Source of the DNA: Gammaproteobacteria bacterium
GTDB taxonomy: Bacteria; Pseudomonadota; Gammaproteobacteria; Eutrophobiales; Eutrophobiaceae
Reading direction: 5' to 3'
Assembly: GCA_021773235.1 (NCBI GenBank)
Contig: JAJFKL010000048.1
Location: 44,687-108,686 of the forward strand
DNA length: 64,000 nucleotides
Shown here: positions 6,357-44,631 of the stretch, one piece after another
Layout of the letters: each line of letters opens with the position of its first letter
Position numbering within the stretch: position 1 is the first letter of the stretch
Notes under the pieces: model-generated
Database searches by the model: none
What the model saw: the letters and a program-made list of their open reading frames with translations, nothing else
Told to the model about the DNA's origin: nothing
Program-made: the position numbers and the translations under genes

Positions 6357-6920
6357 TTAAGCAGTAACAAAATAGATAATATTCACAACAACGACAATTA
6401 AAATACCTATTGTGATTATTTTGACAGGGCTCTTGTTTTTTATCGTAGGTATTACCGGTACTGAACTCTGTTCATCAGCATCTTTATTATCAGGTTTTGG
6501 AACTTTATCTTTATTTAATTCTTCTTCTGGCTCTGTTTCTTCGAGTTCATCAGCTAATTCATGCTCTCTATTTTCAGAATATAGTCTGCAACACATCTCA
6601 CCAATAAGTTGCTCGCCGTTAGCACCCCAATAGACTTCAACACTTTCAGGTAGGTTGTTTTTATCGATATGGACTGAGGAATTGAATGTGGCCTTCAAAC
6701 TGTTTTCTACAACACCATAACCATAGATATAGAGTAATTCATCCGTTCCGGGAATTTTGATATGTAATTCATCTAGTAAGAGGTTTTGAGGCAGGGGTGG
6801 TTTTGTAGTAATGATGGCATCAATATCCCCGATTGCTTCGCCTTCACCGTGAATCAAACTGTCTTTAAACTCAAAGATGACGGTCTCGCCATCAATCGTA
6901 ACAGAATATTCTTTATCCAT
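6357..6920 (-). CDS. Hypothetical tail-anchored protein (acidic linker plus C-terminal TM helix)
   Basis: 187-aa ORF. C-terminal IITIGILIVVVVNIIYFV helix. No family recognised. Confidence 0.4.
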   Translation of the reverse strand: MDKEYSVTIDGETVIFEFKDSLIHGEGEAIGDIDAIITTKPPLPQNLLLDELHIKIPGTDELLYIYGYGVVENSLKATFNSSVHIDKNNLPESVEVYWGANGEQLIGEMCCRLYSENREHELADELEETEPEEELNKDKVPKPDNKDADEQSSVPVIPTIKNKSPVKIITIGILIVVVVNIIYFVTA

Positions 6921-6995: not shown

Positions 6996-8177
6996 TCACA
7001 ATTCAGCCGATTTTATTTGCTCCTTCATTTGCAATGCAGCAATTGCATAACCGCCATCAGCTGCATCTACAAAATGAAAATGTTCGCCTACTCGGTTGTC
7101 AATCATGCAGGTCATTAAGGCTGAATTTGAGACATGTATTCCGTAGACACATTCTTTATTAGTATATTTTTCTTTTAAATAAGCAACCAATTCTTCACGC
7201 TGCTTTTTTGTGCCCGAAATTACTTGTCGTAAGATACCATCAAATTTTTTGAAATCAGTATTACTAATTAATTCGGACTTATATGATCCCCAAGCTACTC
7301 CCGCGACATTCAATTTAAACGTCATGAATACCCATCCTAAGATATTTTGAATATATAACTTCACCCAATAATTTAAAATTGAAAATGTGCTTTCTTTGTG
7401 TGTTCTGACACTGACTTCATTTTTTAACTTGTTTATGTTGCTAGTTAAACTTAGGCCCGCTTCATGAACAGGTTGGCATTCATCATCAGCCCCATATATA
7501 TGTTGTATCTTTACAATAATATCATTGTAAATTTTTGACTCTTCATCTATTGAAGCTGCGAGAACCTTGACGATCAATGCAATCGTTTCGCCATGCTTGC
7601 TTGGTATGTTGTTCCAACGACATTCCAGGCCAGAGTAATCTGTCTTCGTCTCCTCACCCATATTCTCAAAACGGAATTGTTGCCCTGCTTTATCATCTTT
7701 GATTAGATTTTCTGCATACTCTATACCGCCACCGGAGAACGCAGCTTGAGTATAATGTTCGGACATTCTATAACGAGAAACCAAAACCTCATGTCCTGCA
7801 CTTCTAACAACCGCAATAGGAACAATACCAACTCTCAGGTTAAGACCGAATTGCTTTTCAGCCATGTACTTTGTTGCTATTAATGCTTTTTTTGCTTTTT
7901 CTACAAGACTAGCCGGGATACATAATGATGCTCCATCACCACCAAACATAGAAGGTAACAGAATAAGCGGGGAGATATTCTTTATAGCAGTTATAATTGA
8001 GACCCCTACAATATTAACGGCTTTATATTTTCCTGCCTTTATCGCACCGGTTGAATTCTGGATGTCTGCAGAAACAATCAACCAGTCATCAGGCAATTTT
8101 GAATACTTTGATAGAACAGATACAACTGAAAAATCAGCATGCACCGGGAGTTTCGAATAAAATTCATCTGAAGACAT
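6996..8177 (-). CDS. DUF3095-like protein (nucleotidyl-cyclase/GGDEF-like fold)
   Basis: 393 aa. N-terminal VSADIQNST...FGGDGASLCIP resembles the metal-binding strands of cyclase-fold proteins. Family assignment is from memory. Confidence 0.55.
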   Translation of the reverse strand: MSSDEFYSKLPVHADFSVVSVLSKYSKLPDDWLIVSADIQNSTGAIKAGKYKAVNIVGVSIITAIKNISPLILLPSMFGGDGASLCIPASLVEKAKKALIATKYMAEKQFGLNLRVGIVPIAVVRSAGHEVLVSRYRMSEHYTQAAFSGGGIEYAENLIKDDKAGQQFRFENMGEETKTDYSGLECRWNNIPSKHGETIALIVKVLAASIDEESKIYNDIIVKIQHIYGADDECQPVHEAGLSLTSNINKLKNEVSVRTHKESTFSILNYWVKLYIQNILGWVFMTFKLNVAGVAWGSYKSELISNTDFKKFDGILRQVISGTKKQREELVAYLKEKYTNKECVYGIHVSNSALMTCMIDNRVGEHFHFVDAADGGYAIAALQMKEQIKSAEL

Positions 8178-8417: not shown

Positions 8418-10196
8418 ATGCCTATATTAAAACATATCCGATTTGGTGCCTTCGTACGCGAGATTACAATGCACCAACAAGAGATCAGCTATAATGATTT
8501 GGCTCCAGAAATCAAACAAGACCAGGATGGTAATGATTTGGCTTATCGTCCGGGCAAACTTAAAGTGCGCTCAATTGATGTCTATCGTCTGGCACAACCC
8601 TATTTTAAGGTTCGTTTAATCGACCAAATAAAAGCTGTCTTACCATTAGCTGTTTATCTGATTTTATTTCAACTATTGATACTACGTCAGAATGTTACAG
8701 ATTCATGGGTTATTACAGCAGGTTTAATGTCCGTAATTTTTGGACTTATGTTTTTTATTGAAGGCTTAAAAGTTGGACTCATGCCTTTTGGTGAGACCAT
8801 AGGCAATATATTGCCATCAAAGGCGAGACTGGCAACTGTATTATTCATTGTCTTTTTGCTAGGTATAGGCGTTACATTTGCTGAGCCTGCTATAGGTGCA
8901 CTAAAAACAGCTGGCGCAATAGTCAATGTTGAACGTGCACCCTATTTATATTCATTATTAAACTCATGGTCAGAAGTGCTGGTGTTAATGGTTGGTATGG
9001 GTGTTGGTCTTGCCGCGGTTTTGGGAACACTCCGGTTTATTTATGGCTGGAGCTTAAAACCACTGATATACATGTCATTGATACCGACCATTGGTTTGAC
9101 AATCTATATAATGGGCGACAGTGAACTTAGCAAAATATTGGGTCTCGCATGGGATTGTGGTGCTGTAACTACCGGGCCTGTTACAGTGCCTCTAGTACTT
9201 TCACTAGGCATTGGTATTGCCACAGCCGCTGGCAAAGGCCGGTCATCGTTATCCGGGTTTGGCATTGTCACTCTCGCATCATTATTTCCTATCATCGCCG
9301 TTCAAATACTGGCTATTTTTGTTTCCTTTGCAGAAACACCCGAAATGATTATTAGTGAGGCTGCCTCTATCAGCAACTTATCAAACACCTTGAGTTGGCA
9401 CGAAACAACACCTTACGTTGAATTGCTATCCGGTATTCGCGCCATTGTTCCATTAGTATTATTTTTGATGTTTATACTCATTTATATACTTAAAGAGAAA
9501 ATCAAACATCCAGGCACCATTGCTTATGGAATTTCCCTGTCTGTAATAGGTATGATTATTTTCAATGTTGGCCTGAGCTATGGCTTGTCCAAGTTAGGAG
9601 GTCAGTCTGGTGGTCTAGTGCCTGGCGCCTTCACAAAGATCGAGCTTATCAGCGAATCACCTTTATATAACTTTGCATTAGGCATGTCGATTGCGCTTGC
9701 TTTTGCATGGATACTTGGTTTTGGCGCAACGCTGGCCGAGCCGGCATTAAACGCTTTAGGCATGACCGTGGAAAACCTGACTAATGGCGCTTTTAGAAAA
9801 AAGTTATTGATGCACGCTGTTTCGTTTGGTGTTGGCTGTGGTATAGCAATAGGCATCTTTAAAATTATATTTTCCATACCGATCGCCTACATTATTATCC
9901 CCGGTTATTTAATTGCTATCGTTTTGACATACTTTTCAACTGAAGAGTTTGTCAATATTGCCTGGGACAGTGCTGGCGTTACAACAGGCCCGGTAACTGT
10001 ACCTTTAGTGTTAGCGATGGGGTTAGGCTTTGGTGAAGCAGTTGGGGCGATAGAAGGCTTTGGTATTTTATCTATGGCATCAATTGGCCCAATCATTTCT
10101 GTTATGGCTACTGGCTTGTGGATACAATGGAAAGTTAACAAACGCCGAGAACGTGAAGATGAATTAGTTGAATCTCTTGAAGGAGTTGACTCATGA
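8418..10196 (+). CDS. DUF1538-family integral membrane protein (two fused DUF1538 halves)
   Basis: 592 aa, polytopic. The motif AWD(C/S)..VTTGPVTVPLVL..G.G occurs once in each half. The gene is followed by PII-like genes, as is typical for this family (from memory). Confidence 0.7.
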   Translation: MPILKHIRFGAFVREITMHQQEISYNDLAPEIKQDQDGNDLAYRPGKLKVRSIDVYRLAQPYFKVRLIDQIKAVLPLAVYLILFQLLILRQNVTDSWVITAGLMSVIFGLMFFIEGLKVGLMPFGETIGNILPSKARLATVLFIVFLLGIGVTFAEPAIGALKTAGAIVNVERAPYLYSLLNSWSEVLVLMVGMGVGLAAVLGTLRFIYGWSLKPLIYMSLIPTIGLTIYIMGDSELSKILGLAWDCGAVTTGPVTVPLVLSLGIGIATAAGKGRSSLSGFGIVTLASLFPIIAVQILAIFVSFAETPEMIISEAASISNLSNTLSWHETTPYVELLSGIRAIVPLVLFLMFILIYILKEKIKHPGTIAYGISLSVIGMIIFNVGLSYGLSKLGGQSGGLVPGAFTKIELISESPLYNFALGMSIALAFAWILGFGATLAEPALNALGMTVENLTNGAFRKKLLMHAVSFGVGCGIAIGIFKIIFSIPIAYIIIPGYLIAIVLTYFSTEEFVNIAWDSAGVTTGPVTVPLVLAMGLGFGEAVGAIEGFGILSMASIGPIISVMATGLWIQWKVNKRREREDELVESLEGVDS

Positions 10197-10558
10197 GTAA
10201 ACGCAATATCGTTGTATTAACCGATGTAGCATTAATAACGTGCATAATTCAAAAAGGATGCGCAGACACTATAGTAAAGGCTGCCCAAGATGGTGGTGCT
10301 CAAGGTGCAACTGTATTTTATGCGCGAGGCAGTGGCGTTAGAGAAAGGCTTGGCGTGCTCGGAATTGCTGTCGAAGTTGAAAAAGAAATTATCAATATTG
10401 TTGTTGCTACTGATCAAATTGATCGTATATTTGAAAAAATATATCTGGCGGGAAACCTTGATACGCCTGGCATGGGCTTCATGTATGTTACTCCTTTGGA
10501 AAAGGCCGCTACTTACATACCTACAGAAATTGCTGACAAACTTACTACGGAAGTTTAA
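10193..10558 (+). CDS. PII-like (GlnB superfamily) signal-transduction protein
   Basis: 121 aa. beta-alpha-beta/T-loop-like/beta-alpha-beta pattern (ITCIIQKG.AD.IV..A...GA.GATVF.ARG.G...EKEIINIVV). ATGA overlap with the DUF1538 gene. Confidence 0.65.
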   Translation: MSKRNIVVLTDVALITCIIQKGCADTIVKAAQDGGAQGATVFYARGSGVRERLGVLGIAVEVEKEIINIVVATDQIDRIFEKIYLAGNLDTPGMGFMYVTPLEKAATYIPTEIADKLTTEV

Positions 10559-20027: not shown

Positions 20028-21206
20028 TTAATGACCTATTGCCGTTAACTGGTTCATGATAGCCCGTTTTACTGGCCAAATATTGTTGCCCAGTCTAAGC
20101 ATGGTTTTTCTCATCAATCTTGCCGATAACATTTCATTATTATTATACAAACGAACAATTCCATTCGTTGCCAGATATAGTGGATGCGATGCGCGTCGAT
20201 GTATTGAGTGATAGCTTTCCAATACTGCTGGCGAAGCAATATCAACACCTCGCTTCAATGCAGTCTTTATCTCCCTGGCAAGCGTATTTTGTCCTTTTAA
20301 CCCTAAATTAAACCCATGTGCGGTTACCGGATGCATACCGACAGCAGCATCACCAATCAATGCAAAACGATTTGACACAAACTTATCCGCATAAACAGCA
20401 ACAAGTGGATAAGGAAACCGTTCACCGATCAGTTTCATTTTACCTAGGCGATGCTTGAATTGATGAGAGATATCATTATTAAATTTTTCTTCACTTAAAT
20501 TTAGTATTTCATTGCATCTATCAGTTGGCGCAGTTATTACTATTGATGATTGATTTCCTGTAAGAGGTAAAACAGCAAGTGTTCTACCATAATGAAAACA
20601 TTCATAGGCAATATTGCCATGTGATTTCTCATGTTCCATTCGGCACACAATAACAACCTGACCAAAATCTCGCATGCTGGCAGACAAGCCCACTTTGCGA
20701 CGCGTTTCTGAAAACCGACTATCGGCAGCAACAACTAACGTAGCATCAATCGTTTCTCCATTAGATAGTACGACAGATGCACCTTGATTATTATTACTTA
20801 CAGACATGACAGAGGTATCAGTCGATAACTCAATATTCGATAGCGCATCTAGATTTTCATACAGTGCCTTACGAATTAAATGATTAGACACAAGATATCC
20901 TAATGCGTCATGACAGACTCTTTTATGATCAAAATGCAAGAAGTATGATGATGTGCCATCTAATACTCTCGCTTCCTTTATCGGCGAGATAGCATTAGAA
21001 GAAATTTGAGGCCATGCACCAATCTCATTTAATAACTTAACAGAGAGATGCGTTAATGCAATATCGCGCCCATCAAAAGCAGGATAAGCTAGGGATTCTT
21101 TAGATGACTTTTCAACAATTAACACATTCAAATCAGTGTTTGCAAGTGAACGAGCAAAACTCAGCCCCGCTGGACCTGCTCCAATTATAACAACATCGTA
21201 TTTCAT
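20028..21206 (-). CDS. FAD-dependent ubiquinone-biosynthesis hydroxylase, UbiH/UbiF/VisC/Coq6 family
   Basis: YDVVIIGAGPAGL Rossmann fingerprint. GDAAVGMHPVTAHGFNLG motif. 392 aa. Confidence 0.8.
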   Translation of the reverse strand: MKYDVVIIGAGPAGLSFARSLANTDLNVLIVEKSSKESLAYPAFDGRDIALTHLSVKLLNEIGAWPQISSNAISPIKEARVLDGTSSYFLHFDHKRVCHDALGYLVSNHLIRKALYENLDALSNIELSTDTSVMSVSNNNQGASVVLSNGETIDATLVVAADSRFSETRRKVGLSASMRDFGQVVIVCRMEHEKSHGNIAYECFHYGRTLAVLPLTGNQSSIVITAPTDRCNEILNLSEEKFNNDISHQFKHRLGKMKLIGERFPYPLVAVYADKFVSNRFALIGDAAVGMHPVTAHGFNLGLKGQNTLAREIKTALKRGVDIASPAVLESYHSIHRRASHPLYLATNGIVRLYNNNEMLSARLMRKTMLRLGNNIWPVKRAIMNQLTAIGH

Positions 21207-37327: not shown

Positions 37328-37787
37328 GCTTACTTGCTTGTGCCTATTGTTATTCTTTGTAACGACAGTCTCTGCAGAAATCGCTGGATTTCCATTTGAA
37401 AGCGAAGCACAAGAACAACGCTTTCGTGATCTATCGTCCGAACTTCGTTGTCTAGTTTGCCAAAATCAATCTCTGGCAGATTCTAATGCAGGCTTAGCTC
37501 AAGATCTTCGCTCAGAATTATATGAACAGGTTCTAACGGGCAATTCGAGTAATCAGATCATTAGCTTTATGACTGAGCGTTATGGTGATTTTATTTTGTA
37601 CAAACCCAGGTTTGCGACGAAAACATTATTTCTCTGGTTAGCACCTTTTCTCTTATTCATTGTCGGCGTTTTCTTTTTAATCAGGTTTAGCAAGCTTCGA
37701 AATCAAACTCAATCTATTGGCGCAACTGAAGAAGAATTACAAAAAATACGTGAACTGCTACAAGCAGAGGAAAAAGAAAATCAATGA
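37317..37787 (+). CDS. ccmH: Cytochrome c maturation protein CcmH
   Basis: LRCLVCQNQSLADS (LRCxxC) motif. 156 aa with a C-terminal TM helix. Confidence 0.85.
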   Translation: MMSRLTCLCLLLFFVTTVSAEIAGFPFESEAQEQRFRDLSSELRCLVCQNQSLADSNAGLAQDLRSELYEQVLTGNSSNQIISFMTERYGDFILYKPRFATKTLFLWLAPFLLFIVGVFFLIRFSKLRNQTQSIGATEEELQKIRELLQAEEKENQ

Positions 37788-39001
37788 CCTTCATCTTACT
37801 AACTCTGGCTATAGCAGTGATTGCGGTCTTATTTTTACTGTTGCCATTATTTTCAAAAAAAGGACAGCAATCTAAAGTAGAACGGGATGCCGTCAATATT
37901 CAAGCTGCAGCAACAAGACTTTCCGAATTGAAACTTGAATTAGAAAATGGGCTAATAAGCCAGGATAGATTCGATAATTACAAACTTGAGTTAGAAACAG
38001 CTGCGCTTGATGATTTACGCAATGACGCTTCATCTGAAACTCAAGAGCATAAAGGCAATAGAATATTAGCCGTCATAGTAGCACTGTTAGTACCCTTGCT
38101 TTCTATTGTCATATATCAGCAACTGGGGAATGAAGCCGCTTTTCACCCTGAATTACAAACTGATGAATCTGCCATAGCAAGTCAAGAAATTGAAAAAATG
38201 CTTGTCGCAGTAGAACAGGCAGTGAAGGAAAACCCGGATGACATAGAAGGAAGGATAGCCTTAGCGCAAGTTTATGTTGAATTAGAAAGATACAGTGACG
38301 CTGCAACTGTTTATCTTGAACTTATGAAACTGCGTCCTAACGATCCTGACGTACTGGTTAACTATGCTGAAGCGTTGGCACGTTCACATGGAAACCGTTT
38401 AACCGGAAAACCGACTGAATTATTAAACGAAGCTCTGGAGATAGAACCAAAACATGGGCGCGCACTTTGGCTCGCTGGGTTTGCCGAACAACAGGCTGAC
38501 AATAAAGAAGGCGCATTAGCACACTGGCGTCATCTACTTGCCGGCATGGAAGAAGGCTCAGAAGTACATAAACATCTTGAAAATTTAATTTCCGAACTGG
38601 AGAGCGGTACATCAGTCCCAGAAAACCACACTGCAGTTCAACAAAGTGATGTGCAACAATCCATTCAAGTGAAAGTTGCCTTATCATCGGAATTTCTGAC
38701 CAAAGTAGATCCAAATACAACTCTGTTTATTTATGCACGCGCGTCTGAAGGACCACCTATGCCGCTTGCAGTACATAAAGGTTTAGCTAAGGACCTTCCA
38801 ATCACTGTGACGCTTGATGACAGTATGGCGATGATGCCGCAAATGACGCTTTCTAGTTTTCCCAAAGTAATTGTCGGAGCCAGACTTTCTAGCAACGGGC
38901 AACCTCAGGGTCAGACAGGCGATTACGAAGGTTATTCAGATGCGATTGAGGTTTCAGCTAACCCCGTAGTGGATATCCTTATCAATTCGGTAAAACCTTG
39001 A
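37784..39001 (+). CDS. ccmI: Apocytochrome c chaperone CcmI (CycH), two-TM N-domain plus TPR domain
   Basis: TM1, charged loop, TM2, then TPR repeats. Last gene of the ccm operon. ATGA overlap with ccmH. Confidence 0.75.
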   Translation: MTFILLTLAIAVIAVLFLLLPLFSKKGQQSKVERDAVNIQAAATRLSELKLELENGLISQDRFDNYKLELETAALDDLRNDASSETQEHKGNRILAVIVALLVPLLSIVIYQQLGNEAAFHPELQTDESAIASQEIEKMLVAVEQAVKENPDDIEGRIALAQVYVELERYSDAATVYLELMKLRPNDPDVLVNYAEALARSHGNRLTGKPTELLNEALEIEPKHGRALWLAGFAEQQADNKEGALAHWRHLLAGMEEGSEVHKHLENLISELESGTSVPENHTAVQQSDVQQSIQVKVALSSEFLTKVDPNTTLFIYARASEGPPMPLAVHKGLAKDLPITVTLDDSMAMMPQMTLSSFPKVIVGARLSSNGQPQGQTGDYEGYSDAIEVSANPVVDILINSVKP

Positions 39002-39047: not shown

Positions 39048-39089
39048 TGGTACCAAATATTAACAATATCTTGGTACTACTCTAGTACC
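39048..39089. promoter_or_regulatory. Direct repeat TGGTACCA-N16-TGGTACTA plus an adjacent inverted half-site (TAGTACC), upstream of haoA
   Basis: TGGTACCA 39048-55 and TGGTACTA 39072-79. GGTACTA-ctc-TAGTACC is a 7-bp inverted repeat (39073-39089). The identical 32-bp architecture recurs at 41906-41937. Confidence 0.6.
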
Positions 39090-39180
39090 TCTGTAAAGAC
39101 TAGTATCCCTGTAGGGTATCACTGAATTCTATATTCGGTGTTGTTGTGGCTTTGGTCCACAATCATTTAGGGGATAACAC

Positions 39181-40692
39181 ATGAGAATAATAAACTTAAT
39201 CAGTACCTTGCTGCTCTTATTGACTGCATCAGTCTATGCAAATGCCGCTACAGATACATATGATTATGGATCACTAAAGACAAAATATTATGCTGATCAT
39301 CCAGGGAAAGGTAAGTACGCCGATCTTTGGGAACCTATCCCTATCCAGCAATACTGGAACCCGATCACTTTTTACAAACCACCACAAACTATCAAAGGTG
39401 ATTTTAAAGCAGCTGAATGTGTTGCCTGTCACCAAGGTACAAGTCCTGGCTGGGTTCACGCATGGAAAGACAGCACACATGCTAATCTTGAAGAACTACG
39501 TGGCTTGCCAGCCAGCGATTCTCGTTTTTACAAAAAAGCAAAGCTAGAAGAAGTAGAAGCAGGACTGCAAAAACGTGGTGTACTCAAAAAAGGTCAAAAG
39601 CTCGCTGAAGTCGGTTGTATTGATTGTCATGGTGGCGTTGGTCAAGCATCACTTAAACATGATATAGACTTGCGTATGCCTGATCGAGCCGCTTGCGGTG
39701 AGTGTCATGTTCAGGAATTCGGCCAAGCCGAGGCTGAAAAAGAACAAAAGTGGCCGCAAGATCAATGGGGTGAAGGACACCCATCTCACGCAATGGACTG
39801 GAAGGCCAATGTAGAGACAGGTATCTGGGCAGGAATGTCACAACGAGAAGTCGCTCAAGGTTGTGATATGTGTCACTACCAACAAAACAAATGTGATGGC
39901 TGTCATACACGCCACACCTTCTCTGCCGCTGAAGCACGTAAACCTGAAGCTTGTGCAACCTGCCATAACGGTGTCGACCACAATGAATTTGAAGGTTATA
40001 TGTACTCCAAACATGGCGTGCTTTATGAAACCACAGGTAAAGCAGAATGGGATTTTGAAGTACAACTTAAAGATGCAATTGCAAAAGGTGGATATACCGC
40101 GCCTACATGTGCATGGTGTCACTTTGAATTCGAAGGTGAATTTTCACATAACTTAGTTCGCAAAGTACGTTGGGCATTTAACCCAACGCCTGCTATTGCA
40201 GACAACCTCGACCATCCCTGGTTCGAAAAACGCAAAGAAGCATGGATAGGCACTTGTGCTAACTGTCACTCTGCCCGTTTTTCTAAAGCATGGTTAGATA
40301 CTGCTGATAAAGGAACCATTCAAGGCTTGGCAGTTGAACAAGAAGCAAAACAGATTGTACAAAAATTGTATGACGATGGTTTGATGGTCGGTCAACAGAC
40401 TAACCGCCCTGCACCACCAAAACCTGAAAAGGACGGCCCAGGAGCATTCTTTGGGTTGTTCTTTGCTAAAGGAAATAATCCATCGTTCGTAGATCGTACC
40501 TACGCTGAGATGTGGGAACATGACTTGATCAAGCATTACAAAGGTCTGTTCCATGTCAATCCAGGAGGTTTCACCTACTCTGAAGGCTGGGCAAGACTGA
40601 TGCGTCGCTATGCAGAAATTCAGGATGCAAATACACAAATCAGAGAAATGGATGCCTTAAAGAAAAAGGTAGAAGCACTAAGCAATAAGTAA
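39181..40692 (+). CDS. haoA: Octaheme hydroxylamine oxidoreductase (HAO) family cytochrome c
   Basis: Signal peptide. Eight CxxCH motifs (CVACH, CIDCH, CGECH, CDMCH, CDGCH, CATCH, CAWCH, CANCH). 503 aa. C-terminal NPGGFTYSEGW contains a Tyr where I recall the P460 cross-linking Tyr of oxidative HAOs. Confidence 0.8.
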   Translation: MRIINLISTLLLLLTASVYANAATDTYDYGSLKTKYYADHPGKGKYADLWEPIPIQQYWNPITFYKPPQTIKGDFKAAECVACHQGTSPGWVHAWKDSTHANLEELRGLPASDSRFYKKAKLEEVEAGLQKRGVLKKGQKLAEVGCIDCHGGVGQASLKHDIDLRMPDRAACGECHVQEFGQAEAEKEQKWPQDQWGEGHPSHAMDWKANVETGIWAGMSQREVAQGCDMCHYQQNKCDGCHTRHTFSAAEARKPEACATCHNGVDHNEFEGYMYSKHGVLYETTGKAEWDFEVQLKDAIAKGGYTAPTCAWCHFEFEGEFSHNLVRKVRWAFNPTPAIADNLDHPWFEKRKEAWIGTCANCHSARFSKAWLDTADKGTIQGLAVEQEAKQIVQKLYDDGLMVGQQTNRPAPPKPEKDGPGAFFGLFFAKGNNPSFVDRTYAEMWEHDLIKHYKGLFHVNPGGFTYSEGWARLMRRYAEIQDANTQIREMDALKKKVEALSNK

Positions 40693-40804
40693 ACTGATTA
40701 TTGCTTAACCCCATACAACAGGTAACAAGGATGTTACCCTGTGCATGGGATCTATCAGTTTTAGTATTCCTCTAAAACTTCACACATCACATATTCTTAT
40801 AAAA

Positions 40805-41884
40805 ATGCTATCTATTAAAAAACAACATGCTTTCATACGCACAACCATACTGTCAGGCATTGTTCTGGCAATAGCTATTTCAGGTTTGGTCTACATTATT
40901 AATTCAAACAAACCAGAACAAGCTAATTTAATTAATGACGACATTACGGAACCTGAAAGTAAGATATTCACCATAACAACATCATCAGATATAGAAAAAT
41001 TATCTTCTTTAAATCCCTTTTTCAAAATTAATTCTATTGAGACATATCATATTTCTCTTGAAGAGAACGACTCACACGATCTCTCTGTAGCGACATACAC
41101 TGATGGTCAAGGTGAAGATAAGAAAGCTATCATCTATCTACCTGATGCAGATGATAATGCCACGGATGGTGAGTCTACTACCGACAAAGCTAAAAAAGCT
41201 TTTTCATCTGCAGACAAATCATCACATTATCGTTATGAAAAATGGCTAGCAACTTCAGAAGCTATAAAAAAATACACAAATGAACAATCTTTGTTTGTTT
41301 CATATTGGGATAACGCACAAAAAATTCATTTATTCACCGGACGCGAAACATGGATAACCAGCCCGGATAAAAATGCTTACAGTTCACCAGCAGAGCAAGC
41401 ATTATGGGAATCAGTAGCGGGTGGTTTTGATACCGATGGAAAGCTTTCTAAATTCAGTGAGTATTTATTGCAAGATATGGATACAGCGATTACTGAATTA
41501 AAAAAAGAATTATCTGATGAAAGAGAGTCTTATATAGTAGTAAGTAATGATGACCTTGCGCATGTTCAGGAAATTGCTGCGCTTACTGGGCAAGGATTGC
41601 CATTGGAAACCAAGCTATTCCCTGCCGCCGCAGAATTACATAATAGTATTTCTAAAGTGAAAGAATGGGCTAAAGAAGGAAATGGCACTGGAAGCTATTT
41701 AGTGCAACCGATGTCAGAAAAATTTAATCGTGTTTGGCGTGTCACTGATAAATCATTTGAAGATTCCTTATTGGTACGATTGCTACCCTTTACATCCTCG
41801 TTAGATAGACCATTTGATAAAACAAAGTTGGTATACCAATCTGATTGGGGCGCTTATATTAGTATCTACCAACTGATTAATTGA
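40805..41884 (+). CDS. haoB: HaoB-like N-terminally anchored protein (orf2 position downstream of haoA)
   Basis: Called by position and architecture only (single N-terminal TM, about 360 aa). Start taken at Met 40805 rather than 40745. Confidence 0.5.
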   Translation: MLSIKKQHAFIRTTILSGIVLAIAISGLVYIINSNKPEQANLINDDITEPESKIFTITTSSDIEKLSSLNPFFKINSIETYHISLEENDSHDLSVATYTDGQGEDKKAIIYLPDADDNATDGESTTDKAKKAFSSADKSSHYRYEKWLATSEAIKKYTNEQSLFVSYWDNAQKIHLFTGRETWITSPDKNAYSSPAEQALWESVAGGFDTDGKLSKFSEYLLQDMDTAITELKKELSDERESYIVVSNDDLAHVQEIAALTGQGLPLETKLFPAAAELHNSISKVKEWAKEGNGTGSYLVQPMSEKFNRVWRVTDKSFEDSLLVRLLPFTSSLDRPFDKTKLVYQSDWGAYISIYQLIN

Positions 41885-41905
41885 TATTTTAATCGCTGTA
41901 CGCAT

Positions 41906-41937
41906 TGGTACCATAAACAAAACAACCATTGGTACTA
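41906..41937. promoter_or_regulatory. Direct repeat TGGTACCA-N16-TGGTACTA upstream of the MocR-type regulator gene
   Basis: TGGTACCA 41906-13 and TGGTACTA 41930-37. Lies about 66 nt upstream of the GTG start at 42004. Same half-sites and spacing as 39048-39079. Confidence 0.6.
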
Positions 41938-42003
41938 TCAATTATCGAATTAGACCTGATATATTAGAACCATCATCATTAATGTTATGCATGCAATGTA
42001 GGG

Positions 42004-43497
42004 GTGACATTTGTGCAAATTTCAATAAGTCTGGATTCTAATAGCGAACATTCTTTACAAAATCAGGTGTTCGAATCGATTCGAGAACAGATTTTAAGCG
42101 GTCATCTAAAATCAGGCATGCTAATGCCATCCACTCGCATATTAAATGAACAGCTAAGTGTATCTCGCAATACCATCATCCTCGCCTACGACAGATTAAT
42201 CGCAGAAGGTTATTTATTTTCTAAAAAGACGGTCGGCACATTCGTCAACCCTAATCTGCCGGAAGATTCATTGATGTTAATGGACGAAAACTCCAAAAAC
42301 ACAATTAAACGTGTACAAGATAAAGAAAAATCTACGCCCAAAAGACATCCTGTCGCATTTCAAGGCCGTGTTCAGGCATTGTTCAATCCTTATAGAGAAA
42401 AATTAGACGTTGATTTTTGGGTAGGAAGACCGGACCCACAATCCTTCCCTATCAATATCTGGCGTCAGCTTACTTTAAAGAACCTATCTCACTCAGGTTC
42501 GAGTATGACTGAATACCATGATCCTGCAGGCATTTACGATTTACGTAAAGCAATCGCTGATCATCTTCGACCAGCTAGAGGTATTGAATGTAGTCCGGAG
42601 CAGATCATTATAGTGAATGGCATTCAAGAGGCTCTTAATGTGGTCTCACGCGTCTTGATAAAACAAGACACCCCAGCGGTAATGGAGTGCCCCTGCTACC
42701 AAGGCGCTGCTTATGTATTAGAAAGTTATGGCGCAAAATTACACCCAGTGCCTGTTGATAGTGAGGGGCTTGATGTAAATCTATTGCCTGACAAAGAAAC
42801 TGCGCTAGCCTATGTCACACCATCGCATCAATATCCTCTAGGCGCTACCTTGCCGTTGGAACGGCGAGTGCGTTTACTTGATTGGGCCAGAGATACAGGT
42901 GCCTATATTGTTGAAGATGATTACGATAGTGATTTCCGTCATCAAGGCTCTCCTTTAACGGCCGTCGCAGGTCAGGACAGATACGGTTATGTGATTTATA
43001 TGGGGACCTTCTCAAAATCTATTGGTGCAGCTTTGCGCCTAGGCTATATGGTTATGCCTGAAGAATTGGTTGAGCCTGCAAGAACAGCCAAAGCTCTCAT
43101 GGATAACGGTCACGCCTGGTTAGATCAGGCTGTAATGATGGAATTCATAACAAGCGGCGCTTACCTTAAACACCTACGTTGTATCAGGCGTACATATTTA
43201 AGTCGACGAGATACTTTGATACAAGAACTTCAAAATAACTTTGGTGATGTACAATTATCAGGCTTGGAGGGTGGCATGCATCTGGTTTGGCATTTACCAG
43301 AATCTCTGCCTGAGGCTAAAGAAGTTCAACAAGTTGCACAAGATGCTGGAGTAGGCATTTATTCCTTACCGGCAGCGGCAGCACATGATTTTGGTAAAAA
43401 AGGCTACCGTGAACGTGCACTGCTATTCGGTTACTCATCAACTACTGAAGACCAAATCCGTGACGGTATTGCAAGGATTTCTAACGCATTAAAATGA
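42004..43497 (+). CDS. MocR-family regulator (GntR wHTH fused to a PLP-dependent aminotransferase-like domain)
   Basis: N-terminal GntR HTH (LPSTRILNEQLSVSRNTIILAYDRLIAEGYL). Fold-type I aminotransferase domain with PLP-Lys in YMGTFSKSIG. 497 aa. Confidence 0.85.
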   Translation: MTFVQISISLDSNSEHSLQNQVFESIREQILSGHLKSGMLMPSTRILNEQLSVSRNTIILAYDRLIAEGYLFSKKTVGTFVNPNLPEDSLMLMDENSKNTIKRVQDKEKSTPKRHPVAFQGRVQALFNPYREKLDVDFWVGRPDPQSFPINIWRQLTLKNLSHSGSSMTEYHDPAGIYDLRKAIADHLRPARGIECSPEQIIIVNGIQEALNVVSRVLIKQDTPAVMECPCYQGAAYVLESYGAKLHPVPVDSEGLDVNLLPDKETALAYVTPSHQYPLGATLPLERRVRLLDWARDTGAYIVEDDYDSDFRHQGSPLTAVAGQDRYGYVIYMGTFSKSIGAALRLGYMVMPEELVEPARTAKALMDNGHAWLDQAVMMEFITSGAYLKHLRCIRRTYLSRRDTLIQELQNNFGDVQLSGLEGGMHLVWHLPESLPEAKEVQQVAQDAGVGIYSLPAAAAHDFGKKGYRERALLFGYSSTTEDQIRDGIARISNALK

Positions 43498-43659: not shown

Positions 43660-44631
43660 ATGTTTAAAGAGAAATCAACGTCACAAAAGATAATAATAAT
43701 CATATTAGTATTGCTGTTATCTGTATTCGCTATTGGACTATACCAGTACTTAACCCAACCTGAGTTTGTTGAACAGGTAACTCTTTTAGAAGAGTTAAGT
43801 TCAGCTGATTCTGATGAAGAGAAAGCAGCTTCTGTAGAAAAAATGTTAGTACATCTTGAGCAAAGACTGCTCAACAACCCAGATGATGCTGAAAGTTGGC
43901 TAATCCTAGTCAATTCTTATACTACCCTTGAACGCTACGATGATGCCTTAAGAGCTATCGAAAACTTATATCGAATTAAAGGAAAAGATTCATCAGTCAT
44001 GTTCCGATATGCCGATATCATGTCCATGGTTAACAATGGACGCTTTAAAGGTAAGCCAACTGAATTAATTGATGAAGCGCTGCTCATTGACCCAACAAAT
44101 AAAAATGGCCTTTGGTTAGCGGGACTTGCAGCGATACAGAATGCGGATATTAAAAAAGCACTAAAACATTGGCAACAACTTCATGGTCTATTTGATGAAA
44201 ACTCAGAGTCGCAACTGAAAATAAAACACTATATAGACTTGGCACGTGAACAATTAGTTGAAACAGACACAGAGCCTGCCAATGATTTAGCGCTTCATGT
44301 TGATGTTAGCCTGTCAAAAACTTTATTAAATGAAGCCGACGAAGATGATGATGTCTTTATTTATGCAAAGGCCATTGATGAATCGCTTATGCCGTTAGCA
44401 GTTATGCGTAAAAAAGTGAGCGACCTTCCCCTGCAAGTGATACTTAACGACTCAATGGCACTGATATCCACAAATAAATTATCTGATCACAAACAGATCC
44501 AGCTTATTGCCAGAGTATCAAAAAGTGGTAATGTCAAAACAACTCCTGGGGACCTCATTGGCATCCTCGACTTAGTTCCAACTAAACTATATTTACCCGT
44601 CAAGTTGGTAATCGATGATGTAGCTCAATAA
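43660..44631 (+). CDS. CcmI-like TPR protein (paralogue of the CcmI C-terminal domain, single TM anchor)
   Basis: Alignable with the TPR and C-terminal region of CcmI at 37784..39001 (e.g. GKPTEL..EAL.I.P....LWLAG.A; FIYA.A......PLAV......LP..V.L.DSMA). Lacks the two-TM N-domain. Confidence 0.6.
   Translation: MFKEKSTSQKIIIIILVLLLSVFAIGLYQYLTQPEFVEQVTLLEELSSADSDEEKAASVEKMLVHLEQRLLNNPDDAESWLILVNSYTTLERYDDALRAIENLYRIKGKDSSVMFRYADIMSMVNNGRFKGKPTELIDEALLIDPTNKNGLWLAGLAAIQNADIKKALKHWQQLHGLFDENSESQLKIKHYIDLAREQLVETDTEPANDLALHVDVSLSKTLLNEADEDDDVFIYAKAIDESLMPLAVMRKKVSDLPLQVILNDSMALISTNKLSDHKQIQLIARVSKSGNVKTTPGDLIGILDLVPTKLYLPVKLVIDDVAQ

Follow-up and report, generated by a model that had tools for sequence, protein, structure and literature searches.

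Which protein switches on the genes for hydroxylamine oxidation is the question raised by a gammaproteobacterial locus in the stretch of DNA analysed here (the window: 64,000 nt, or 64 kb, of contig JAJFKL010000048.1), in which haoA, encoding hydroxylamine oxidoreductase (HAO), and haoB are followed by a gene for a regulator of the MocR family. Bacterial ammonia oxidation depends on HAO as its central energy-yielding enzyme, and in methanotrophs the same enzyme is the main detoxifier of hydroxylamine. In the literature that we searched no regulator of hao is described, though hao transcripts are known to respond to ammonia and to hydroxylamine. Results of our comparison of related loci make it very probable that the adjacent MocR-family protein binds two 32-bp elements of the window as its operators, one upstream of haoA and one in front of its own gene, and that hao belongs to its regulon. 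The predicted regulator, operator and promoter layout would thus make up a new regulon of a known regulator family.

Two bipartite sites in the window

The original prediction described the same two octamers in front of haoA and in front of the regulator gene, and both pairs are found there (Table 1). The pattern TGGTACCA-N16-TGGTACTA, the first box of which is a palindrome, occurs at exactly two places in the window even if up to three mismatches are allowed; with no third copy, the motif does not behave as a generic repeat. The bipartite-site scan, which like the shuffle controls covered the whole window, gave four matches (each site on both strands) vs. 0.36 expected, and none of 100 shuffles reached four. 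The hexamer TGGTAC alone is not enriched (21 occurrences vs. 19 expected), so the signal lies in the pairing of two boxes at a fixed distance. The spacers, proposed earlier to be the same, agree in their length of 16 nt and in their A/T richness but not in sequence, as only six of the 16 bases are shared, while the boxes and the spacing are identical.

The proposed distance to haoA is correct, as the first site ends 102 nt before the ATG. The 66 nt proposed for the second site apply only to the first GTG of the regulator open reading frame (ORF), at 42004. Judging by the orthologues, which are 494 aa long and start with MQxxIxLD, translation probably begins at the GTG at 42013, 75 nt from the site. 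The additional inverted half-site TAGTACC noted at haoA is present in the window and in the relative at 94% identity (L081), but its conservation does not extend further: L082 has TAGCCTA instead, and in L083 it is absent. Because it is kept only in the 94% relative and lost in the 85% and 71% relatives, this half-site is probably lineage-specific and outside the conserved operator. Three other candidate half-sites, near 41772, 41828 and 41866, all lie inside the haoB coding sequence; that at 41828 (TTGGTATACCAA) is, in addition, mutated in L081, and all three were rejected as sites.

Table 1. Positions of genes, predicted sites and promoter elements in the window and in related loci (positions without a locus name refer to the window)
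Feature	Position	Strand	Description
Predicted haoA operator	39048..39079	+	TGGTACCA-AATATTAACAATATCT-TGGTACTA; box 1 39048-39055, 16-nt spacer, box 2 39072-39079
Inverted half-site TAGTACC	39083..39089	-	part of GGTACTA-ctc-TAGTACC, 39073-39089
Predicted -10 of haoA promoter, TAGTAT	39101..39106	+	21 nt after box 2; without -35 consensus
haoA, octahaem hydroxylamine oxidoreductase, oxidising type	39181..40692	+	PF13447, E 3e-146; 503 aa
haoB, HAO-associated membrane protein	40745..41884	+	TIGR04392 haoB_nitrify, 186 bits, just below the cutoff of 200
Predicted regulator-gene operator	41906..41937	+	TGGTACCA-TAAACAAAACAACCAT-TGGTACTA; box 1 41906-41913, 16-nt spacer, box 2 41930-41937
Predicted -10 TATATT (41960-41965) overlapping third box TAGAACCA (41965-41972)	41960..41972	+	predicted regulator-gene transcription start
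MocR-family regulator gene	42004..43497	+	GntR winged helix-turn-helix and aminotransferase-like PLP (pyridoxal 5'-phosphate) domain; PF00392, PF00155
Internal haoB-cycA sites, perfect	L001 8480-8511; L007 8257-8288; L032 8398-8429		ammonia-oxidiser-type clusters
Methylocystis membrane peptide	L004 9479-9787; L008 9463-9726; L009 4852-5139; L024 9500-9730	-	

Conservation of the site in related loci

Loci for comparison were drawn from protein look-ups, which supplied the closest relatives, and from a scan of a genome collection (among the matches listed); the comparison set comprises the 43 clade members whose regulators are at least 42% identical (42-96%) to that of the window. The look-ups returned homologues at 53-96% identity from Nitrosococcus halophilus, N. 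watsonii, Ca. Nitrosacidococcus, Ca. Nitrosoglobus, Sedimenticola and Thioalkalicoccus. Among the matches listed in the genome-collection scan are homologues of 40-57% identity from Nitrosospira, Nitrosovibrio, Methylocystis, Hyphomicrobium, Xanthobacter and several Burkholderiales.

In the 1.56 Mb of the window and the related loci, the relaxed pattern TGGNNCCA-N16-TGGNNCTW (TGGnnCCA-N16-TGGnnCTw) occurs 39 times, vs. a mean of 0.25 and a maximum of two in composition-preserving shuffles of the same 1.56 Mb. When the spacer length was varied from 8 to 26, there were 39 sites at N16, four at N15 and at most two at each other length. Twenty-four of the 39 sites are co-oriented with haoA or with the regulator gene and lie within 350 nt upstream of it, three are located between haoB and cycA (confirmed as the gene of cytochrome c554), and most of the remaining ones are found just upstream of the regulator gene, facing its divergent neighbour. 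The position of the three sites between haoB and cycA predicts an internal cycAB promoter that is regulated separately.

Upstream of haoA the boxes and their spacing are retained in 18 related loci, the spacers having diverged. Upstream of the regulator gene, co-oriented sites that are perfect or have one mismatch are present in 14 related loci, mostly 59-73 nt before the start codon, and L085 and L012 have two-mismatch sites at the equivalent position. In the relatives at 94%, 85%, 75% and 71% identity the boxes are unchanged amid diverged spacers and flanks, which is the footprint expected of a protein-binding site. The haoA site reads TGGTACCA-N16-TGGCGCTA in Nitrosovibrio, TGGTGCCA-N16-TGGTCCTA in N. 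halophilus, TGGCGCCA-N16-TGGTCCTT in Methylocystis, TGGCACCA-N16-TGGTACTT in Burkholderiales and TGGTACCA-N16-TGGTCCTT in Sedimenticola; in L034 the hao promoter is unreadable, as the locus ends there.

With these results, an origin of the repeats in chance, in a dispersed generic repeat or in sigma-54 promoters (TGGCAC-N5-TTGC) has next to no credibility. The exact 32-bp pattern does occur at no fewer than 120 places in public metagenome contigs, only three of which are beside hao or mocR, as a generic element might. However, a 16-base pattern is expected to give such hits by chance in a collection of this size, and the hits include coding tandem repeats, so the metagenome scan is hardly informative on specificity. 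In the window and the related loci, by contrast, the site is found only in promoters of hao, cycA and mocR, and the 16-nt spacing is strict. Chance and a generic repeat were rejected on the strength of the window scan, the shuffles and the spacer-length scan. As to sigma-54, the TGGCAC variants of the boxes resemble a -24 element, and L028 reads TGGTACTTGGTTTGC, but the -12 TTGC is lacking in both window sites and in the majority of the other sites; the sigma-54 reading fits L028 only and was rejected as well.

The metagenome scan also yielded two further true sites, in L114 and L169. The multiple exact matches in L105 (2000-2560) and L153 (840-1080) are situated in tandem repeats of 12 and 24 nt in which TGGTAC/GGAGTAGTACCA is frequent and which look like repetitive coding sequence unrelated to hao.

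Linkage of hao and the regulator gene

The haoA gene adjoins the regulator homologue in 20 of the 43 clade members, and for five of the 23 unlinked members the flanking DNA on one side is short or missing. In a neighbour-joining tree, the hao-linked loci sit on four deep branches. The linked groups include Nitrosococcus, Ca. Nitrosoglobus, Nitrosovibrio, Methylocystis, Sedimenticola and Burkholderiales, and the linkage recurs, with three different gene orders, in alpha-, beta- and gammaproteobacteria.

Several arrangements of the genes are found. The order haoA-haoB-mocR of the close relatives (94%, 85% and 71% identity) is extended to haoA-haoB-cycA-cycB-mocR in Nitrosovibrio Nv4 and two metagenome-assembled genomes. 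In N. halophilus and Ca. N. terrae, mocR is divergent from haoA-haoB-cycA-cycB and has the gene of cytochrome P460 after it, and in Sedimenticola it is divergent from haoAB. Four Burkholderiales-type loci (L025, L027, L035 and L036) have mocR and then haoA directly on the same strand, in L028 and L034 haoA is on the strand opposite to mocR, and in Methylocystis mocR and hao are convergent. The orthologue of N. oceani, Noc0891, appears only as "GntR" in an expression table, between cytL and haoA (PMC3772326).

Linkage and motif co-occur in the relatives, with the site conserved across proteobacterial classes. The proposal that the MocR protein would regulate its own gene and control haoAB is thereby strongly supported by comparative genomics, namely by the recurrent linkage and the conserved N16 site. 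The same layout is conserved in cultivated organisms, including N. oceani, N. halophilus, Ca. Nitrosoglobus terrae, Nitrosovibrio sp. Nv4, Methylocystis spp., Sedimenticola selenatireducens and Comamonas badia, which makes the prediction directly testable.

In L086, no hao is found within 7 kb of the regulator gene, whose product shows 60% identity; beside this gene lie a truncated cycB-like remnant (6574-6813, minus strand) and, after the regulator gene, a 573-aa ORF (8789-10510) without a Pfam or NCBIfam match. In the Nitrosospira loci L003 and L005 (contigs of about 2 kb) and L006 (contig end), the contigs break right beside the regulator gene, as would be expected if the gene abuts a multi-copy hao-cyc cluster collapsed by assemblers.

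Promoter layout and the sign of regulation

A -10-like hexamer TAnnnT lies 21-22 nt after box 2 in 16 of the 38 perfect sites and in at most three at any other offset. In the relatives, the hexamer of the haoA promoter (TACTAT, TATTAT or TATCAT) is found at the same offset as in the window. A consensus scan for sigma-70 promoters with a -35 element found none in the haoA or the regulator-gene region. Since there is no -35 consensus and the hexamer lies 21-22 nt further on, box 2 would occupy the -35 position, where activators usually sit; this fits an activator site in an arrangement known for GabR.

The regulator-gene promoter has a further element. In six perfect sites T[AG]GnnCCA follows box 2 at a distance of exactly 27 nt, and it is found at no other offset between 0 and 59; five of these six sites are regulator-gene promoters, and the third box is also visible by eye in L085 and L015. 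Its location over the -10/start region at the regulator promoter fits autorepression, and it is likely an autorepression box.

A regulator that represses haoAB and is released by the signal, rather than activating these genes, is improbable. Certain MocR proteins do repress, e.g., EnuR/EhuR and PtsJ (named in NCBIfam; PMC8739950), and the transcription starts considered here are only predicted. On the other hand, the haoA site is located upstream of the predicted -10, in place of the missing -35, across many loci, and a box covers the -10/start region only at the regulator's own promoter.

Some observations weigh against a straightforward assignment of these elements to a hao regulon. L007 and L083, though hao-linked, have no recognisable site before the regulator gene. 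About half of the regulator clade is unlinked to hao within the available flanks and has the same type of site before other genes, so the box type is not hao-specific, nor is the clade. The -10 assignment is a weak consensus match, found in only 16 of the 38 perfect sites.

The other genes preceded by this type of site encode a molybdopterin oxidoreductase (L021, L023 and L031), an amino-acid permease (L011 and L016), a NirC-like transporter (7362-8177) and a cupin (20511-20960) in L017, ABM and cupin proteins in L029 and a Pyridox_ox_2 protein in L062; several of the genes behind non-hao sites relate to nitrogen oxyanions. In Methylocystis, a gene divergent from the regulator gene and preceded by a perfect site of its own, TGGCGCCA-N16-TGGCGCTT, encodes a small, conserved single-helix membrane peptide with the core M-x-L-A-N-S-K/R-I-V-P-x-A-F-W-x-G-F-L-A-L-G (Table 1).

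The regulator protein and its characterised relatives

The regulator has the features of the MocR subfamily: a GntR winged helix-turn-helix domain, an aminotransferase-like domain with a PLP lysine, and a predicted repeated-box operator near its gene. Its N-terminal winged helix (PF00392, E 3e-15, residues 19-81) aligns to GabR residues 2-80, and its C-terminal part is a fold-type-I aminotransferase-like domain (PF00155, E 8e-25). The best match among solved structures is GabR (230 bits). Lys338 in the motif GTFSKS aligns to the PLP lysine of GabR, K312, and the other PLP-contacting residues correspond as well (R345 to R319, Y232 to Y205, D305/Y307 to D279/Y281); all of them, the lysine included, are invariant in 31 orthologues. 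The PLP motif is thus intact as judged by the alignment to GabR alone, and PLP binding and a head-to-tail dimer are proposed for the window protein by family likeness.

GabR of Bacillus subtilis (PDB 4N0B, 5T4J) shares with the window regulator the domain order, the PLP lysine and the PLP-contacting residues. The window regulator is not a GabR, however, judging by its pocket residues, box sequence and gene neighbours. R207 of GabR is replaced with an invariant Gly234 and the R430 region with Ala457/458, so that equivalents of both arginines are missing, while His114 falls outside the aligned stretch. The boxes are of the TGGTAC type with an N16 spacer, the predicted targets are hao rather than gabTD genes, and no gabT or gabD is found near the window regulator. 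The ATACCA repeats of GabR are much further apart than the 16-nt-spaced boxes described here. GabR recognises direct repeats; once effector and PLP have formed an external aldimine, it activates the adjacent operon from a site in the -35 region, and it represses its own gene (PMC11669113, PMC5320631). The comparison of residues between hao-linked and unlinked regulators is confounded by phylogeny and gave only the clade-wide motif ECPCYQGAA, which is common to all members at 42% identity or more, whereas distant MocR proteins have xGAR at this place.

The highest NCBIfam score of the window protein is to the model of PdxR, a regulator known from Bacillus clausii, Corynebacterium and Listeria (PDB 7PQ9), and this raises the explanation that the gene encodes a vitamin-B6 regulator whose adjacency to hao is incidental. 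We consider this very unlikely. The score to the PdxR equivalog NF052282 is 431 bits, well over the cutoff of 320, and the orthologues carry the name PdxR in public records; however, no pdx gene adjoins the regulator in the window or in the flanks examined of the gene-listed loci, where hao, cyc and P460 genes are found instead. Moreover, the sites front haoA, cycA and the regulator gene itself, and the regulator gene remains linked to hao despite rearrangements in three proteobacterial classes. PdxR also differs in its targets, as pdxST, pdxK and pdxH are absent from the examined flanks and from the targets predicted here. The equivalog captures the hao-linked clade (P0066, P0101 and the window regulator) at about 430 bits, and since no vitamin-B6 genes adjoin, the public naming of the nitrifier and Sedimenticola proteins as PdxR is probably a systematic mis-annotation. 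PdxR acts on three boxes, the choice of which changes between the apo- and holo-form, and it is apo-PdxR that activates (PMC5320631). This three-box switching may serve as a template for the regulator-gene promoter and for a mechanism based on PLP stripped by hydroxylamine.

Box 2 has a counterpart in TauR of Rhodobacter capsulatus, a proteobacterial MocR activator acting on direct repeats CTGGACYTAA (PMC5320631), a sequence nearly equal to the box 2 variants TGGACCTA and TGGTCCTA. TauR targets taurine genes, none of which are linked here.

In function, the closest precedent is DnfR, a MocR-family protein that regulates the dirammox cluster dnfT1RT2ABCD of Alcaligenes faecalis JQ135 (Xu et al. 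2022 AEM, 2023 Environ Microbiol, as cited in PMC12575085 and PMC9136411). DnfR is likewise encoded inside a hydroxylamine-centred cluster, has multiple binding sites and governs transcription of the cluster. Its target is, however, a diiron N-oxygenase pathway that makes hydroxylamine from glutamine/ammonia, not the octahaem HAO, and it is known only from Alcaligenes; the dnf cluster, compared here by its description, both produces and oxidises hydroxylamine with enzymes unrelated to HAO. No dnf-like genes are present among the window neighbours. The DnfR protein of Alcaligenes is reported to act as an activator, and its reported box, TGGTCTGT, would be similar to box 2.

Our search of the literature found no description of a hao regulon of a MocR, GntR or PdxR protein, and returned only the papers on DnfR and the "GntR" table entry for Noc0891. 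In the text and supplement examined, a large comparative study of MocR regulons makes no mention of hao, hydroxylamine or nitrifiers.

Proposed mechanism and the effector

MocR regulators recognise direct repeats that are separated by two to three helical turns; they act as activators of neighbouring genes and as repressors of their own (PMC5320631), and in the model of the family a head-to-tail dimer reads the signal through the PLP aldimine (PMC5320631, PMC11669113). This established model fits all the anatomy seen at the hao locus, where the box starts are 24 bp apart and, at the regulator's own promoter, the third box lies 35 bp further on. The binding of the regulator to these boxes and the sign of its action are what we infer here. 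By analogy with GabR, PdxR and TauR, the dimer would set its two winged-helix domains on the co-oriented boxes TGGnnCCA and TGGnnCTw. The regulator would most likely activate haoAB from box 2 at the -35 position and, in ammonia oxidisers, would also activate cycAB from the second, internal site. At its own promoter, the third box would most likely give autorepression or, alternatively, a switch between box pairs that depends on the state of PLP.

The inducing signal would probably be hydroxylamine or a close consequence of it, acting on the PLP bound by the regulator, with two options conceivable: a PLP-oxime that mimics the external aldimine, or the stripping of PLP to give the apo-form. Sensing of hydroxylamine through a PLP-oxime is chemically reasonable and makes a plausible candidate mechanism. 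In vitro, hydroxylamine removes PLP from GabR, at 50 mM (PMC11669113). The loss of the carboxylate-binding arginines of GabR fits hydroxylamine as the effector, and the only function common to the linked genes is the handling of hydroxylamine (HAO, c554 and cM552 as its electron acceptors, and the P460 cytochrome). In N. oceani, haoB, cycB and cytL are upregulated 6-11 fold, equally with NH4+ or NH2OH (PMC3772326), and haoAB is induced by ammonia in a methanotroph that accumulates hydroxylamine (PMC13111605). Two findings speak against this effector. Sister subclades have the same box type before genes of permeases, a molybdoenzyme, a NirC-like transporter, a cupin and an ABM protein, so hydroxylamine is not the sole candidate. 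In addition, HAO is periplasmic and the regulator cytoplasmic, and sensing thus needs hydroxylamine to reach the cytoplasm. In view of this, we suggest only tentatively that the clade may be a dedicated cytoplasmic hydroxylamine sensor, in which NH2OH would attack the internal aldimine and the oxime or the loss of the cofactor would switch the box pairs and turn on hao. No firmer is the suggestion that such sensing may cover hao and cycAB, with P460 where present, in ammonia oxidisers, methanotrophs and heterotrophic nitrifiers.

The same operators could also answer to another effector, be it an amino compound forming an external aldimine as in GabR, or PLP sufficiency or nitrogen status, and this is a serious possibility, if short of a probable one. 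The MocR effectors characterised to date are without exception amines or amino acids, or else PLP (PMC5320631), the effector of DnfR is reported to be still unknown (PMC11440038), and the authors of the N. oceani study interpreted the response as energy- or redox-driven (PMC3772326). The permease, molybdopterin oxidoreductase, NirC-like transporter and cupin/ABM genes preceded by the same box type in sister subclades would fit such an effector too. Less easily reconciled with it are the replacement of the carboxylate residues of GabR and the gene content of the linked loci, which share only hydroxylamine handling through haoAB and cycAB, and through cytochrome P460 in gamma ammonia oxidisers.

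If hydroxylamine were nevertheless the effector, the protein would be the first known transcriptional hydroxylamine sensor, and the core hydroxylamine-oxidising module of bacterial nitrification would have its first known regulator. The cofactor itself would then serve as the chemical receptor, which would be a new use of PLP and a new sensing chemistry, and the system might be used as a biosensor component for an intermediate of the nitrogen cycle whose measurement is difficult.

The haoA and haoB genes and their surroundings

The genes had been called correctly as haoA, haoB and a MocR regulator, as indicated by the haem motifs, the TIGR04392 match and the GntR and aminotransferase domains, respectively. 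HaoA has a signal peptide and eight CxxCH haem-binding motifs, and scores 587 bits against HAO of Nitrosomonas europaea (4FAS), with Tyr466 aligned to Tyr467, the residue of the P460 cross-link. The eight CxxCH motifs, the cross-link tyrosine and the downstream haoB, whose TIGR04392 score is slightly under the cutoff, are the features of an oxidising HAO, and by its sequence HaoA is a true member of this type. The haoB orthologues carry the Pfam domain HaoB_nitrify.

Upstream of the cassette lie ccmF, ccmG, ccmH and cycH; downstream of it there is a second cycH-like gene, and a GATase_4 gene is also near. The haoAB-mocR cassette is flanked by a full-length cycH/ccmI (37784-39001, 405 aa) and by the shorter cycH-like paralogue (43660-44631, 323 aa); this layout is repeated in L081 and L082, and ccmF adjoins hao-mocR in L015, L032, L034 and L114. 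Such flanks suggest either that the cassette was inserted into a ccm operon or that it is functionally linked to haem maturation.

The 5' leader of haoA (39107-39180) contains two small hairpins, of which that at 39120-39140 was flagged as terminator-like. A conserved secondary structure of the leader, computed from four sequences at -3.6 kcal/mol, is only weakly supported. The second hairpin, TTGTGG...CCACAA, is situated just before the ribosome-binding site, where L081 and L082 have ATGGT...ACCAT.

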